IMG/VR virus record: IMGVR_UViG_3300042691_009766
Location: 6,391-70,390 of that record
Source: a virus
Direction: 5' to 3' (one strand)
Length of the DNA: 64,000 nt
In this document: piece after piece, positions 43,608 through 62,858 of the stretch
Numbering within the stretch: position 1 is the stretch's first letter
Layout: the number at the start of each line of letters is the position of its first letter
The notes under the pieces: generated by a model
The model's database searches: none
The model's input: only the letters and a program-made list of their open reading frames with translations
Told to the model about the DNA's origin: nothing
Made by a program: the position numbers and the translations under genes

Positions 43608-44093
43608 ATGCAAATACTCGTAGAACTAGAAGGCGTACTAAGAGGACAAAAAGATGAGCCAATTGCCACGGGCATCATTCTCACAGCCCAATTAGCAGCC
43701 CATAATCAAATCATTTTTATGACGGAGTTATCCCAAGCCGAAGCAGAGCAGTGGATTAACGTCAATAAAGTCGTTGATTACGACATGTTAGTAGACGCCA
43801 ACCTATCTCTGGTAGATGAGCCATTAAAGCATCGTCAGTTAAAGTACGCTCGTGCTAGAGGCAGTGTTGATTTAGTAATCACCAATGACCCATCATTTTG
43901 GGCGTATGCGTTTGACCAAGGCATTACCTGCATGATGTTTGGTGTCCCATCCTATACCCGCCCAGAGTTTCGCCCAGATGCCCCTAAAAAAGTCAGGGCA
44001 TGGAGTGAGATTGAGTTAGCCGTTGCTAAACAAAACGAGTTGCGTACAACAGATAAGCGTTTAACACGCACTGAAGGCACAAGGTTTGAATGA
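43608..44093 (+). CDS. HAD-like fold protein (degenerate motif I)
   Basis: ILVELEGVL resembles hhhDhDGVL; GGAGG RBS. Confidence 0.55.
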   Translation: MQILVELEGVLRGQKDEPIATGIILTAQLAAHNQIIFMTELSQAEAEQWINVNKVVDYDMLVDANLSLVDEPLKHRQLKYARARGSVDLVITNDPSFWAYAFDQGITCMMFGVPSYTRPEFRPDAPKKVRAWSEIELAVAKQNELRTTDKRLTRTEGTRFE

Positions 44094-45580
44094 TAATTTT
44101 TGGCGGAGTTGAGATACCTTCCAACAGAACACTATTGGAACGGTCAGGCGTAACAAATGTAATGTTGAATTACTGGGGGTTACGTAAGCGTGGATTGCCC
44201 AAGACTAAACCCTATTTGATAGGCGAGCATTTCCTTCCTGAGACTAAAGTATGGGTGGATTCAGGTGCAACTCAGGCAGACAAATCAAACCTGTCTAAAG
44301 TCGAATTAGAGGAATATGCCGCTGATTATGAGGAGTTTATTTCCCTAAATTATGACCGCATTGAAGGCTGGACAGAGTTTGATAGTCAGGTCATGGGGTT
44401 TGACTGGATTTTGAAACAGCGGGATGCGTTTGAAAATGACCCGAAATTATGGGTAGTTTGGCACAGCAAGTATAAGACCAACCTGTTGCAGTATTGGTCT
44501 GCCCAGTATCAAAACATAGCCATACCCCACGAATCTATAGAGGCAACCGTTAATTTAGCCACTATTACCAGAAATTTACGGAGGTCTAATGGAGTTCAAT
44601 TCCATGCGTTAGCAACAGCAAAACCAGACAATCTCCGACAAATCCCTTTTGCTACCGCAAGCACGCTGGCATGGTTAAGCCCAATGAGAAGAGGCGAGAC
44701 AATCATTTGGGATGGCAGTAAACTGGTTAGGTATCCTAAAAAGATGAAAGACCAAGCACGGCTACGATACAAGGCAACTGTTGAACGTGCAGGATTAAAT
44801 TTTCAGAAGTTCGTTTCAGACGACACCTTGGAAGCAACTAGGGTTGCAATATGGTCGTATTTACAGTTAGAGGCAAATGTGGACAAAGATAAGCCAGACC
44901 TAAGAGTTATTCAAGGCGGTCAAAAAGACCCGTTAATAGCAGATAACAATGACGACACCCTATATACGGGTTTGATGGAATTAGGGGGGGTAGGTTCTGA
45001 TAACAGTGCATTAGAAATGCGGAAAGAAGTTGTGCAGAGAGACCCTCAAGAAATGACCGCAATGCCCGTTTTTGGGTATGAAATGAAGACCATAGTGGAG
45101 AACCAAGATGGTCGAGATGTGTTAAAACAAGTTTCAGTTGTACAGACCAATACAAGTAGTTTGAGACAATGCGACACCTGTTTTGTTGCATCAAATTGTC
45201 CTGCATTTAAGCCTCAAAATACATGTGCGTTTAACCTTCCAGTAGAGGTAAAAACTCCAGAACAATTGAAGGCGTTGAACACCGCAATGTTAGAGATGCA
45301 AGCCCAACGAGTAGCATTTATGCGGTTTGCAGAGGAAGCCAATGGTGGTTATGCTGACCCTAACCTGTCTCAAGAGATGGACAGATACTTCAAGATGTTG
45401 GAGAAGTTAAAGGCGTTAGACGAGAACAAAGAGTTTATTCAAATTACCGCTCAACGAGCAGCGTCACAGGGTGTATTAAGTGCTATCTTTGGTGACCGAG
45501 TGGCAGCCGCAAAGGAGATTCAACCTGTAATCTCCGAAGAGCAAACCACTATGATTATCAAGAACCAGATAGAAGACTAA
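44090..45580 (+). CDS. TGT/DpdA-like barrel protein with C-terminal Cys cluster
   Basis: VWVDSGA, FHALAT, ASTLAW..PMR.G; CDTC..NCP...C. Confidence 0.5.
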   Translation: MIIFGGVEIPSNRTLLERSGVTNVMLNYWGLRKRGLPKTKPYLIGEHFLPETKVWVDSGATQADKSNLSKVELEEYAADYEEFISLNYDRIEGWTEFDSQVMGFDWILKQRDAFENDPKLWVVWHSKYKTNLLQYWSAQYQNIAIPHESIEATVNLATITRNLRRSNGVQFHALATAKPDNLRQIPFATASTLAWLSPMRRGETIIWDGSKLVRYPKKMKDQARLRYKATVERAGLNFQKFVSDDTLEATRVAIWSYLQLEANVDKDKPDLRVIQGGQKDPLIADNNDDTLYTGLMELGGVGSDNSALEMRKEVVQRDPQEMTAMPVFGYEMKTIVENQDGRDVLKQVSVVQTNTSSLRQCDTCFVASNCPAFKPQNTCAFNLPVEVKTPEQLKALNTAMLEMQAQRVAFMRFAEEANGGYADPNLSQEMDRYFKMLEKLKALDENKEFIQITAQRAASQGVLSAIFGDRVAAAKEIQPVISEEQTTMIIKNQIED

Positions 45581-54013: not shown

Positions 54014-55386
54014 TAGTTGTTCTCCTCTAGGTTGATGTTTAGGTCTCGTGCAATGTTTTCCCGCTGAGTATCAAGGTGCATAGACACAGCCTCTCTCTCC
54101 TCTGGTGAGAAGTTAGCGAGAAAGCGGTTGATTGCAAACTGGAAGTTGTATGTCTTCGCTTGCTTGACGAAGTTCAGCAACATACGAAGACCAACTCTGG
54201 TCTTGTGCCTTGCTGGTTCACTCTTGGATAAGTAGCGGAGGGCGGTTGCAATCTCCAGCAACGCTGGACTTGGTATCAACTGCTTCTCAATCTCAGGGTC
54301 ATCATCAAACTCAATCTTCACATTGAAGCGGTCAATCAAGGCTGGGTCTTGCTGACGAGTGCCAACATACCTTGACCCGACATTCTGGTCAGCAATGAAG
54401 ATAGTGTTTGGGTGAACAGGGATGACCTCGTTCAGCGTTTCAATCTGCAACTGCTTCTCCTCTAAGATACCTAGGAAGAGAGTTGAGTTAGCAGGAAGCA
54501 TACGGCTAAACTCGTTGAGCAAGACGATGCCGCCATGCTTGATGATTGTGGCAAATCGTGAATAGTGCCAGTCCCAACCACCAGTGCCATTTGGCAATAA
54601 GCGACCCTCAGTTTCCGCCTTGGACAGCGAGCCATCCATTTCCAAACGAACATAAGGAAGCCCCAAGTGTGAAGCAAGGTTGATTGTTGCCTGAGTTTTA
54701 CCTACACCAGCCTCACCAGAGAGCAGGAAGTTATCTCCAGCCTGAATACCACGAGTGAACATGTCTATCTCGTCAATCCCGTCAATCTTACGCTGGATGT
54801 GGAAAGGCTTTTCAGGAACGCTGAGTTTTGCCCAATAGCGAGGTGCTTGACCAGTAGTAATCATCTCAGCCACAGGTTCGGAAGTTGTCCCAACACAAAC
54901 CTCTTCGGCTACTGGCGGTGCAGATACAGGGGTCTCCTGAGTAATCGCCACCGATACTGGTGAAACATAGGTGTTTGACTTAGCGTATCTCGCCAGATGT
55001 TCTGGCTTGTGGTCAATGGTGTTGAATAGTTCTTGTGCCATGGTGTCCCACCTCACATCAGTAGTGCTGGTCTGGTCTTGAACTGCACGAGCCAACTTCT
55101 GCAATAGCGTAGTTGGTCTGCCAATCATGATGTCCCGTTCATCACTAGCAGTGATGAATAATGATACGGGCTTGCCGAGCATGACTTCATCTTCGGCTTT
55201 GAGCCAAAGTTCAGCACGACCCGTTCTGGATACTGGCATCCAAGCCCCAGCCACACCACGCAACTTGGTATCATTACCAAGACTACGGGTGTAAATCAAA
55301 GGCTCTCTCCCATGAACATCAGGGATGAAAGCGGTTTGGCGAATACCATTTACCGCATGATTAGATTGCAAGATTGTTGCATACAT
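54013..55386 (-). CDS. MoxR/CbbQ-type AAA+ ATPase (CobS-like)
   Basis: GEAGVGKT, VLLNE, DPALIDRF; adjacent to VWA gene. Confidence 0.85.
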   Translation of the reverse strand: MYATILQSNHAVNGIRQTAFIPDVHGREPLIYTRSLGNDTKLRGVAGAWMPVSRTGRAELWLKAEDEVMLGKPVSLFITASDERDIMIGRPTTLLQKLARAVQDQTSTTDVRWDTMAQELFNTIDHKPEHLARYAKSNTYVSPVSVAITQETPVSAPPVAEEVCVGTTSEPVAEMITTGQAPRYWAKLSVPEKPFHIQRKIDGIDEIDMFTRGIQAGDNFLLSGEAGVGKTQATINLASHLGLPYVRLEMDGSLSKAETEGRLLPNGTGGWDWHYSRFATIIKHGGIVLLNEFSRMLPANSTLFLGILEEKQLQIETLNEVIPVHPNTIFIADQNVGSRYVGTRQQDPALIDRFNVKIEFDDDPEIEKQLIPSPALLEIATALRYLSKSEPARHKTRVGLRMLLNFVKQAKTYNFQFAINRFLANFSPEEREAVSMHLDTQRENIARDLNINLEENN

Positions 55387-59773: not shown

Positions 59774-59926
59774 TCAGCGAGTTATTTGATTGTTAGTTCC
59801 CAAGTCAATCTCTTCTTGCTTGGTTCGTAGCAAAGCAATAAGCCCGTCAATAATCCTAGACTTGTCGCTTGTGGCTATGAGTATCTTGGCTATCTCTTGG
59901 TCAAGGGGAGTAATAATCTTATCCAT
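59774..59926 (-). CDS. 50-aa peptide ending LGTNNQITR* in repeat
   Basis: GAGGACTAATG start; translated by hand. Confidence 0.55.
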   Translation of the reverse strand: MDKIITPLDQEIAKILIATSDKSRIIDGLIALLRTKQEEIDLGTNNQITR

Positions 59927-60180
59927 TAGTCCTCGCCCTCCTCGTCATCAAGACCAGCGAACATCATGTCCCAGCAAGTCCCACAATAGCCCGATAAGAA
60001 CTGCTCACGAATACCTAGGTCAGTATCAGGCAAGACCTCGCCAATCAACGCCCCTTGATTGTATTTCCATACCTGCTGTCCCGTAATCTCAATGGTCTTT
60101 ACATCACTACACATGGGACATGGGTAAGTGCTGAGTGTGTATCTGTCTTCGGCAATCTTGCCTACATGAGCAACTCTCAT
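59926..60180 (-). CDS. Zn-finger protein (CPMC...RE..LSG.C..CW)
   Basis: motif plus GGAGG RBS. Confidence 0.7.
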   Translation of the reverse strand: MRVAHVGKIAEDRYTLSTYPCPMCSDVKTIEITGQQVWKYNQGALIGEVLPDTDLGIREQFLSGYCGTCWDMMFAGLDDEEGED

Positions 60181-60386
60181 TAGTTAGCCTCCTGTATGTC
60201 GGTTGTTAGTTCCCAAAGTTCCTCTGCTATCTCCTGAATAACTAAACGCTTCTCCATAGCCCTAGTAGTCAGGTCATCACAGCAAGCATAGGACATAGCG
60301 TTTCGCATGAGCCTAGCCCTCTTCGGCTTTAGGTGCTTGTTTCGTGCTTTCTTTACTGCTGGTGTATCTTTGAGTGTTCTACTCAC
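60180..60386 (-). CDS. hypothetical protein
   Basis: AAGGAG RBS after repeat, GTG start. Confidence 0.65.
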   Translation of the reverse strand: MSRTLKDTPAVKKARNKHLKPKRARLMRNAMSYACCDDLTTRAMEKRLVIQEIAEELWELTTDIQEAN

Positions 60387-60472
60387 TTGCTCTCCTTGTT
60401 TGGTTGGTGTTGCCTCACTATTGGGTCAGTGAGTTATTTGATTGTTAGTTCCCAAATCTTCAGGCTAGTTAG

Positions 60473-60678
60473 GTGAGCAGTTTAGACACTTACTCAGGTG
60501 CTTAGATAGTTTAGCCACTCTTGCGATAATCTAAATGTGGTCGCATTGACTAAGGCAGGTCGCACCCTCCTTAGTTTGCTCATACCAACTCTGCCTCGGT
60601 TGGCTGAGGTTAGGACACGATTGCGAGTTCCTAACTAATCTTTAGTTGTGTGAGCAGTTTAGACACTTGCTCAGGTGT
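60473..60678 (-). ncRNA. candidate structured RNA (3 pseudoknot motifs + 3 hairpins)
   Basis: intergenic on - strand; covarying stems; complementary UCGCA/UGCGA loops. Confidence 0.6.
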
Positions 60679-60701
60679 TTCTACCAACCACCAGCAGAAA
60701 T

Positions 60702-61070
60702 CTACCCGTAAGTTATTTCCCCGAAGATTGCGTATTGGCATACCAAATCACCGAAGCAAGCGTCAGGGTCTTCCAAGTCCAATGGATAGTTCCCACAATG
60801 AGTTTGCCCAGCAGACAAGGCTAGTTGATAGCCCTTGGCTAGTTGGTCTAGCGTAATGGTGTGCCACTTCTCTTCGTAATCGTCCCAGAGCATAAAGTCC
60901 TGAGGGTTAGGCTCGTAATCAGGTTTAGTCCAAAGACTAATGCCCTTGCCGTCAGGCTTACGAACCTTGCTTGCCCAATAACCCATACCAGCACCATCAC
61001 TACCCCAGATTGCTTCCCAGAGTTCGTTGAGTGATACTTCCATGCTTATTGTTATCTTCTTGTCTTCCAT
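60702..61070 (-). CDS. conserved phage hypothetical protein
   Basis: G.GYWA...DA...D...QYAIFGEI.YG. Confidence 0.75.
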   Translation of the reverse strand: MEDKKITISMEVSLNELWEAIWGSDGAGMGYWASKVRKPDGKGISLWTKPDYEPNPQDFMLWDDYEEKWHTITLDQLAKGYQLALSAGQTHCGNYPLDLEDPDACFGDLVCQYAIFGEITYG

Positions 61071-61131
61071 GTGTTCTTCTTTCTGTTTGGTTGGTGTTGC
61101 CTCACTATTGGGTCAGCAAGTTATCTTATTG

Positions 61132-61281
61132 TTAGTTCCCAAGAGTTTCGGTCTTGCTTACAGCAAGTCGGTCTAGTGTGTCTAGTCGTGTTGCCTTAGG
61201 CAGAAGAGTAATCCTCAATAGGTCTATCATTGAGTAGTCCTCAGGTAGAACCCAAGTAATCATGTCCTCTGTGTATTCCAT
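61132..61281 (-). CDS. 49-aa peptide ending GN* in repeat
   Basis: AAGGAGG RBS between two repeats; translated by hand. Confidence 0.55.
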   Translation of the reverse strand: MEYTEDMITWVLPEDYSMIDLLRITLLPKATRLDTLDRLAVSKTETLGN

Positions 61282-61327
61282 GTTGCCTCCTTGTTGTGTT
61301 CTCACTATTGGGTCAGCGAGTTATCTT

Positions 61328-61490
61328 ATTGTTAGTTCCCAAATCTCGTATGTATGCCCAACACAAACAATCGCATTGTTAGTTCCCAAGCGTGAGGCAT
61401 TGTTAGTTCCCAAGACACAGGCTCGCAGGTATGCCAATACCCCCCACCCTTACGGGTGAGGGGTAGAGGTATGCGATTGTTAGTTCCCAG
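61328..61490. repeat. cluster of four ATTGTTAGTTCCCA half-sites with GC hairpin
   Basis: copies at 61328, 61375, 61399, 61476; hairpin TACCCCCCACCC-ttac-GGGTGAGGGGTA. Confidence 0.85.
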
Positions 61491-62243: not shown

Positions 62244-62450
62244 GGTTGTTGCCTCTCGTGCTTGGTGGTGGAGGGAGGGGGTCGGGGGGAGGTTGCCCTC
62301 CCCCCTCTATGAAACTTAGTTTCTAAGTCCCATAGGTTCGGCATGTTGTTATTCAGCAGTATTACCTCAACGCCTCTTACTTGCTACTGCCTAGTATGTT
62401 TATCCCGTATCAAACATACAAACTTTATCTAGGTCATCTGCCTAGCAAGA

Positions 62451-62477
62451 GAGCAGTTTAGCCACTTGCTCAGGTGG
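62451..62477 (-). ncRNA. pseudoknot motif copy in 3' UTR
   Basis: CCAC-CUGAGCAA-GUGG-CUAAACU-GCUC, 12 nt after stop of 62490-62858. Confidence 0.6.
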
Positions 62478-62489
62478 TGTTGCCTAGCC

Positions 62490-62858
62490 TTAGGCTAGAA
62501 CCTCAGCCTCAGCCTCAGCCTTGGTGATTGCTACTGCCTTAGGCTTCGCCTTAGCCTTGCCCTTAGCCTTAGCCTTGGTTGCCTTAGCCTTAGCCTTGGC
62601 TCGTGCCTCAGCCTTAGCCTTTCTCTCACTCTTGAGAACGAGAGCCTTGGTGTCCCCTAGTTCAGCGAGCAGACCTCTAATGAAGTCAATGTCGTTGCTG
62701 TATGCTTCAGCGTTCTCTTCGCTGAAACTATCGCTTGCCTCGTCCTGAGCATACTTACGGAGAGTATCTCTCTGGAGAGCCAACTTTCGTAGTCCCTCAA
62801 TGATGTATGGGACGGCTTCTGTTGCTACTTTGGTGGTGCTTGCTGGCTTGTTTGCCAT
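62490..62858 (-). CDS. protein with histone-H1-like KA-repeat tail
   Basis: KAKAEARAKAKAKATKAKAKGKAKAKPK. Confidence 0.75.
   Translation of the reverse strand: MANKPASTTKVATEAVPYIIEGLRKLALQRDTLRKYAQDEASDSFSEENAEAYSNDIDFIRGLLAELGDTKALVLKSERKAKAEARAKAKAKATKAKAKGKAKAKPKAVAITKAEAEAEVLA

Follow-up and report, generated by a model that had tools for sequence, protein, structure and literature searches.

A variable non-coding slot bounded by gene-end RNA pseudoknots in an uncultured phage genome

Results

A non-coding stretch within a gene-dense arm

The DNA analyzed here (the window) is the terminal 64 kb of a 70.4-kb record of an uncultured virus. Its genes include those for a tail sheath, baseplate, DNA polymerase A and ribonucleotide reductase, together with one that is DpdA/TGT-like, and the phage is a sheath-tailed myovirus. 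Genes between 48 and 64 kb are on the minus strand, and among them a stretch of 205 nt (60475-60678, minus) is flanked by a gene of 122 aa and a gene of 68 aa. The features of this region are as follows, in the order in which the minus strand is read.

62451-62477, minus strand: T3, a third bona fide pseudoknot copy, outside the 205-nt stretch (covariance model 42.1 bits)
60702-61070, minus strand: upstream gene, 122 aa, from the ORF list; its stop codon is 23 nt before T1
60652-60678, minus strand: T1, a bona fide H-type pseudoknot at a gene end (42.2 bits with the covariance model, E 2.6e-8; family covariation)
60609-60635, minus strand: H1, hairpin GUUAGGA/UCCUAAC with a 7-bp stem and a 13-nt loop containing UCGCA
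60579-60608, minus strand: H2, hairpin of 10 bp with one bulge
60549-60575, minus strand: H3, hairpin ACUAAGG/CCUUAGU with a 7-bp stem and UGCGA in the loop
60502-60540, minus strand: an apparent degenerate pseudoknot copy, termed the variant (9.5 bits, E=2)
60475-60501, minus strand: T2, a bona fide gene-end pseudoknot (covariance model 38.5 bits, E 2e-7)
60409-60455, minus strand: a copy of the P repeat, 19 nt after T2, which the closest relative lacks here
60180-60386, minus strand: downstream gene, 68 aa, GTG start, from the ORF list

Four ORFs overlap the 205-nt stretch: two on the minus strand, of 29 and 36 aa, and two on the plus strand, of 33 and 68 aa. The AUG of the 29-aa ORF is buried within the H2 stem, the 36-aa ORF is located mostly within the upstream gene and the 68-aa plus-strand ORF is antisense to that gene; none of these ORFs is credible. 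The ORF list thus agrees with a first-pass annotation of this DNA, which had described a non-coding sense-strand stretch, free of any credible ORF, in an arm densely packed with genes. No tRNA genes were detected in the window using ARAGORN, and Rfam returned no match in the whole window at the gathering score. At E<=10, Rfam returned only snoU6-53 noise for 60380-60760 and only noise for 62300-62520. A "distant" blastn search of 59800-61400 against GenBank phages yielded no match, and no relative of the 68-aa downstream protein was found among viral contigs.

Three pseudoknot copies and a degenerate one

The proposal that pseudoknots are present at both ends of the stretch was confirmed: T1 and T2 share the covariation of their family, and the covariance model recovered exactly three copies in the window (T1, T2 and T3), the next-best match scoring only 10.9 bits. 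Further, a 28-nt pseudoknot pattern matched three times in the window and never in 100 shuffles. The sequence of T1 is ACAC CU GAGCA A GUGU CUAAAC UGCUC and that of T2 is GCAC CU GAGUA A GUGU CUAAAC UGCUC. All three copies possess the 27-nt layout of the family. T1 and T3 are also on the sense strand and follow a stop codon by less than about 30 nt (23 and 12 nt, respectively), a position that T2, upstream of which there is no ORF, does not share. T3 follows the gene at 62490-62858, the stop codon of which is in the loop of a 6-bp hairpin immediately upstream of T3.

The sequence at 60502-60540 had been described as a variant pseudoknot carrying UCGCA. The sequence and its UCGCA are present as described, but its status as a knot is not supported, as its score is at noise level (eighth of 24 covariance-model matches). 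It keeps CCAC...GUGGCUAAAC; the 12-mer match GUGGCUAAAC is the only core that it has in common with T3. The invariant C5 is replaced by A, the junction loop is 10 nt, stem 2 differs and the 27-nt layout is lost. Note that generalised knots with a junction loop of more than 1 nt occur at background frequency (7 in the real DNA compared with 4 in shuffled DNA). The variant looks like a decayed pseudoknot copy.

Covariation supports the fold of the family

In the family, stem 1 comprises 4 bp (NNNC/GNNN) and is closed by C-G, and loop 1 is C(U). Stem 2 comprises 5 bp (RRNYA/UGNYY), the junction is 1 nt and loop 3 is NNAAA(C/A). A 16-base core, used to scan viral contigs, returned 93 stretches, and the full element with unrelated flanks was present in 65 of the 74 distinct contexts; the remaining nine are either chance matches or members of a coding family with no relation to the element. 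The 27-nt H-type pseudoknot is present in dozens of viral contigs that are otherwise unrelated. A structure-aware scan detected 157 copies in 880 kb of knot-bearing loci (71 distinct 27-mers) compared with one in shuffled DNA.

When anchors were placed on unpaired bases only, 152 fully paired matches were found in the real DNA compared with 2 in the shuffled DNA. When stem 1 was left free, all 78 distinct sequences formed pairs 2:15 and 3:14, compared with expectations of 32.5 and 46.6, and 63 of them formed pair 1:16. When stem 2 was left free, at least 4 of the 5 pairs were formed in 76 of 84 sequences. In an alignment of 94 sequences, 96.2% of cells were paired compared with 75.8% in shuffles, a percentage that is inflated because the rows were partly chosen by pairing; the unpaired-anchor and free-stem tests are therefore fairer and less circular. 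In the same alignment, changes on both sides were present in 8 of 9 pairs across 160 cells. None of 500 shuffles was as good, and slid partners did not come close to the covariation of the family either. As judged from these sequences, the pseudoknot fold is shown to be under strong selection. The U.G pairs fit the gene (sense) strand only, which indicates that the fold is one of RNA; here the minus strand is the sole strand compatible with them. Further, the sequence of the knot is more conserved than pairing alone requires.

The family appears to be uncatalogued. Rfam detected only three tRNAs in 150 kb from 17 knot-bearing loci, and a search of the literature with the motif sequence found no paper on it, as judged by title. 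A catalogued candidate, DNAVirus_1850, has 27 occurrences, one of them overlapping a tRNA-Asp, according to PMC10690425, and might be the same motif. The 24-base consensus was found in two contigs among 185,579 prokaryote species genomes, both single copies in MAGs. In four metagenome DNA runs, three of them labelled freshwater, contigs of other organisms pile up on the knot.

Family members are located behind stop codons and before tRNA-Asp

In 80 of 80 loci, all copies were on the gene strand, with one strand per locus. Of 124 contexts, 42 had the knot starting 5-10 nt behind a stop codon and 91 had it starting within 30 nt; only 40 had a Shine-Dalgarno start 15-40 nt downstream of the knot. 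The information content from -40 to -4 was near zero. The 42 nt upstream of the knot were unusually structured (mean z -1.48; 44% below -1.5 compared with 17% of random windows), and downstream structure was near background (24% below -1.5). The knot is thus shown to follow closely on stop codons, in many cases with a hairpin ahead of it. Downstream of it, +1 was A in 72 and +2 was C in 53 of 112 contexts, and G was scarce to +7.

All 11 tRNA-Asp genes in knot-bearing loci (tRNA-Asp(GUC) in L007, L014, L023, L043, L051, L063, L072, L073, L076, L078 and L086) were preceded by a knot at 4-11 nt; two of these knots have a longer loop 3 and had been missed by the initial filter. No knot preceded any of seven other tRNAs on the same strand for which the upstream sequence was inspected, and the tRNA-Met, Arg, Leu and Glu genes of these loci lack one.

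The knot also occurs in cultured phages, where it is unannotated and separates the ribonucleotide reductase gene from the one that follows: 9 nt after the ribonucleotide reductase stop codon in Roseobacter phage SIO1 (NC_002519.1 22200-22226) and 14 nt after it in Lentibacter phage vB_LenP_ICBM1 (NC_048672.1 14305-14334). It is further present in Celeribacter P12053L, CRP-6 and CRP-13. Early-gene regions possess up to 6-7 copies per 14 kb, and in 8 of the 15 close knot pairs listed the gap was non-coding and no longer than 150 nt. A protein common to all carriers did not emerge: the top 10 ORF families of knot-bearing loci comprised DUF932, GP88, CHAP endolysin or nothing recognizable, with no RNA-binding candidate among them.

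The knots are retained in close relatives and the sequence between them is exchanged

The 122-aa upstream protein has homologues at 54-81% identity, found in 10 viral loci and 15 from metagenomes. The closest relatives (81% identity; L165, L166 and L175-L177, mutually identical here) keep the order gene, knot, insert, knot, 68-aa gene, and their insert is an unrelated sequence of 73 nt with one long hairpin. They lack the P repeat before the 68-aa gene, which directly follows the second pseudoknot. Relatives at 77-78% identity possess other non-coding sequence and a terminator, with no knot, and in those at 54-58% identity the upstream gene runs straight into the next gene. The suggestion of a cassette slot was supported in that the slot is variable: the knots stay and the content differs between relatives. 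One dedicated ncRNA of about 205 nt was not supported, as both knots were kept around an unrelated insert.

In the window, a non-coding module of about 90 nt with two hairpins is present just downstream of T3 (62343-62428, minus). It is approximately 88% identical to stretches in two viral contigs, L008 and L087 (E 3e-11), where its counterparts have a pseudoknot on both sides; the module has no Rfam match. Slots bounded by knots can thus hold conserved non-coding RNA.

Discussion

Pseudoknots as possible message-end elements

We lean, with modest confidence, towards reading the whole as an intercistronic slot with end-protecting knots at message ends and lineage-specific filler, and not as one dedicated RNA machine. 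The 205-nt stretch would be a non-coding intercistronic slot of a polycistronic minus-strand message, in which T1 and T2 are putatively functional copies of the widespread 27-nt phage H-type RNA pseudoknot. The knot may set and shield the ends of RNAs, as a compact mechanical block or as a mark. Most likely it would protect the 3' end of the upstream message after the transcript has been cut farther downstream; one such cut would be that made by RNase P where the knot is followed, as is often the case, by tRNA-Asp. Protection of the upstream 3' end is favored because of the tight spacing to the stop codon, the frequent upstream hairpin and the position before an RNase P site; a knot directly before tRNA-Asp can serve only the upstream RNA. 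That the knot protects or marks RNA ends is our favored guess.

The approximately 110 nt between the knots (H1-H3), together with the decayed third knot, would be lineage-specific filler. Its two orphan Shine-Dalgarno-like sequences suggest that it is probably what remains of a lost or exchanged cassette. The filler would be co-transcribed and at most accumulate as a by-product bounded by the two knots.

Certain observations fit end protection less well. T2, which has no upstream ORF, has no message to cap, and a lost gene or tandem redundancy would have to be assumed there. Further, about a third of the copies are 15-40 nt before a start codon, which counts against end protection. The 68-aa gene of the closest relatives has only knots upstream, indicating that a knot does not stop the expression of what follows it and could equally be a 5' element. 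A generic model in which the knot acts at any cut site does not predict the exclusivity for tRNA-Asp (11 of 11, compared with none of seven other tRNAs).

The MALAT1-type 3'-end module and the tRNA punctuation of mitochondria are eukaryotic, with a triple helix and an A-rich tail, and differ from the phage knot in these respects. By analogy, the phage knot may resemble these systems in being a compact protective structure directly before a tRNA or tRNA-like RNase P site. If the knot fixes or shields RNA ends, it would be a very compact, portable and widespread punctuation mark of phage mRNA, and the cultured roseophages (SIO1 and Lentibacter ICBM1-3) are ready experimental systems for it. Whichever of the roles considered here the knot has, the supposed ncRNA of 205 nt resolves into two generic elements around private filler, and should not be counted as a separate new RNA class.

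Resistance to 5'-to-3' decay as the main rival

The main rival of end protection, to which transcription control and recombination are secondary, is that the knot blocks 5'-to-3' decay (by RNase J, or by 5'-end-dependent entry of RNase E) in the manner of an xrRNA. T1 would then protect what is downstream, and the unit of T1, hairpins and T2 would accumulate as a stable small RNA, as does flaviviral sfRNA. We regard this as rather unlikely, although the knot is found ahead of genes, of a tRNA and of non-coding modules, and short non-coding stretches (150 nt or less) between knots recur in the close pairs described above. The layout and conserved letters of the knot also resemble those of the coremin xrRNA and its Watson-Crick variant (PMC10321173). 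Coremin (xrRNA-C) and this variant have a short stem, a loop starting Y-G-A and a spacer ...AAACUAC; coremin is modelled as a BWYV-like H-type knot, its loop-1 nucleotide cannot be changed, it is found in plant and other RNA viruses and it needs a downstream hairpin (PMC10321173).

Compared with coremin, the phage knot is likewise very small, has a short stem closed by C-G and a loop starting pyrimidine-G-A, and has a 3' spacer ending ...AAAC U(A/G)C that pairs back into the loop. Unlike coremin, it belongs to DNA phages of bacteria, has a clear 5-bp Watson-Crick stem 2, is located after stop codons and has its partner hairpin upstream, not downstream. The likeness is one of layout only, and we do not claim membership in coremin or in the luteoviral knots. 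Three points oppose resistance to 5'-to-3' decay. Before tRNA-Asp, RNase P cuts the knot off, so that it cannot protect the tRNA; the spacing is tight to the upstream stop codon and not to the downstream start; and coremin needs a downstream hairpin, whereas here structure is enriched upstream. The stronger version, by analogy with eukaryotic exonuclease-resistant RNAs, in which the knot would be their bacterial-virus counterpart and 60475-60678 would survive as an sfRNA-like RNA of approximately 200 nt with loops possibly acting in trans, seems to us more doubtful still.

Transcription control or recombination

An improbable alternative is that the knot acts on transcription, as nascent RNA that modifies RNA polymerase, or as a recombination site. 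The put RNA of phage HK022 is a nascent-RNA element that modifies RNA polymerase. In the recombination version, the nearly identical 27 nt would provide homology for the exchange of cassettes, and the content of the slot would be what the last exchange left behind. The density of copies in early-gene regions (up to 6-7 per 14 kb), the exchange of slot content around constant knots and the conservation of sequence in excess of pairing needs are consistent with such roles. However, the knot has no fixed promoter or terminator partner, as the near-zero information from -40 to -4 indicates, and loop 3 also occurs as CAAAAC, TGAAAC and AGAAAC, which rules out a -10 hexamer. Recombination would occur as a by-product and would leave the covariation unexplained.

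Other identities were considered and rejected. For a sigma-70 promoter, no upstream hexamer is conserved, and the key -12/-11 positions fall at variable sites of loop 3; no promoter-like site was found on the minus strand, and the sequence TTGTGC-18-CATAAT before the tRNA-Asp knots may simply be the end of the upstream ORF. A CRISPR repeat, solitary unit or decoy does not fit the scarcity of the consensus in prokaryote species genomes (2 contigs). For ToxI-like antitoxin repeats, the copies are not in tandem and no toxin gene is adjacent. As for a mimic of the tRNA acceptor, the A at +1 and C at +2 (72 and 53 of 112) are suggestive only.

The -1 frameshifting pseudoknots of luteoviruses and poleroviruses (BWYV, PLRV) are about 28 nt, with a 2-nt loop 1 starting with C, a 1-nt junction and an A-rich loop 3 of 6-7 nt facing stem 1. 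The phage knot is like them in size, loop 1, junction and loop 3. A role as a -1 frameshift stimulator was nevertheless rejected, as the window copies are behind stop codons with no slippery heptamer (X XXY YYZ) before them and no overlapping frame, and family copies also precede tRNA genes.

The middle hairpins and their complementary loops

The first-pass annotation had proposed a single dedicated ncRNA of about 205 nt in which UCGCA and UGCGA loops kiss within or between molecules, as in phi29 pRNA, a non-coding phage RNA with loop-loop complementarity. The listed hairpins, motifs and coordinates were all present when checked on the minus strand, including a second UGCGA at 60541-60545 and a second UCGCA at 60522-60526. 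In the MFE fold, H3 has 10 bp and exposes UGCGA within its loop of 6 nt (GUGCGA). The 5' arm of H3 contains the orphan Shine-Dalgarno-like UAAGGAGG, and the loop and stem of H2 contain GAGG and the AUG of the 29-aa ORF. The fold of H1-H3 (MFE -34.7 kcal/mol, z -2.77) was equalled by one of 200 shuffles, and for the 241-nt region z was -2.26 (minus strand) and -1.77 (plus strand). The hairpins thus fold moderately better than chance. These folds and the lack of a credible ORF favor such an RNA.

However, z <= -2.5 was found for 8.5% of 318 windows of 100 nt in the minus arm, and more extreme values for at least 15. The most structured of them in a sliding scan are 62250-62349 and 55250-55349 (z -5.5 and -5.75). 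Kissing loops were not borne out either: a Watson-Crick loop-loop match of at least 5 nt arose in 1638 of 20,000 loop shuffles (8.2%), and a 5-mer present twice with its complement present twice arose in 1812 of 20,000 shuffles and 1906 of 20,000 random 150-nt windows (about 9%). The complementarity of UCGCA and UGCGA is at chance level. Further, three extra inner pairs in the MFE fold of H1 bury part of its UCGCA. Conservation of the H1-H3 stems in related phages, the lack of which had been named in advance as part of what would refute such an RNA, was absent in the closest relatives, as these hold another insert, and the flanking knots belong to a generic family found beside many genes. We therefore consider a dedicated kissing-loop ncRNA quite improbable.

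The analogy with phi29 pRNA fared no better. The stretch is similar to pRNA in being non-coding phage RNA with loop-loop complementarity; unlike pRNA, it belongs to a sheath-tailed myovirus, is not near packaging genes and has hairpins that are not conserved. No match to Phage_pRNA was obtained from Rfam in the window at the gathering score or in 60380-60760 at E<=10, and in place of a conserved complementarity of interlocking loops we found a chance-level 5-nt match in hairpins that relatives lack.

No homologue of the insert was found in about 1.5 Mb of fetched loci and no protein remnant by blastx (best E 0.51). In the four metagenome DNA runs, contigs cover the 205-nt stretch without a single difference, and none of them joins across it; with an identical insert in all four runs, there is no natural variation for testing. 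A private function of H1-H3 is possible, considering the z of -2.77 and the retention of the identical insert in these runs. A small protein encoded by the 29-aa ORF (60494-60583, minus) is very improbable: the ATG has GAGG 10 nt upstream, but both are within H2, the ORF crosses the decayed knot and ends in T2, and the insert of the closest relatives has no counterpart.

The P repeat and a possible 7-deazaguanine-related gene

A 496-aa protein encoded at 44090-45580 (plus strand) matches the PHROG "queuine tRNA-ribosyltransferase" (E 3e-56), which suggests 7-deazaguanine modification of DNA. To link this gene with the association of the knot with tRNA-Asp would be pure speculation.

The P repeat found after T2 has the architecture UUGGGAACUAACAA, 10 nt, a covarying hairpin and GGCAAC. 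It is present in 16-18 intergenic copies between 51956 and 63991 (minus) and precedes almost all of the small genes. When the plus strand is read, the hairpin and T-run of the repeat have the form of an intrinsic terminator. A scan with a 15-base piece of the repeat returned single matches, among which L121 and L134 are true relatives with 5-10 copies. The closest relatives possess 5-10 copies in 5-14 kb.
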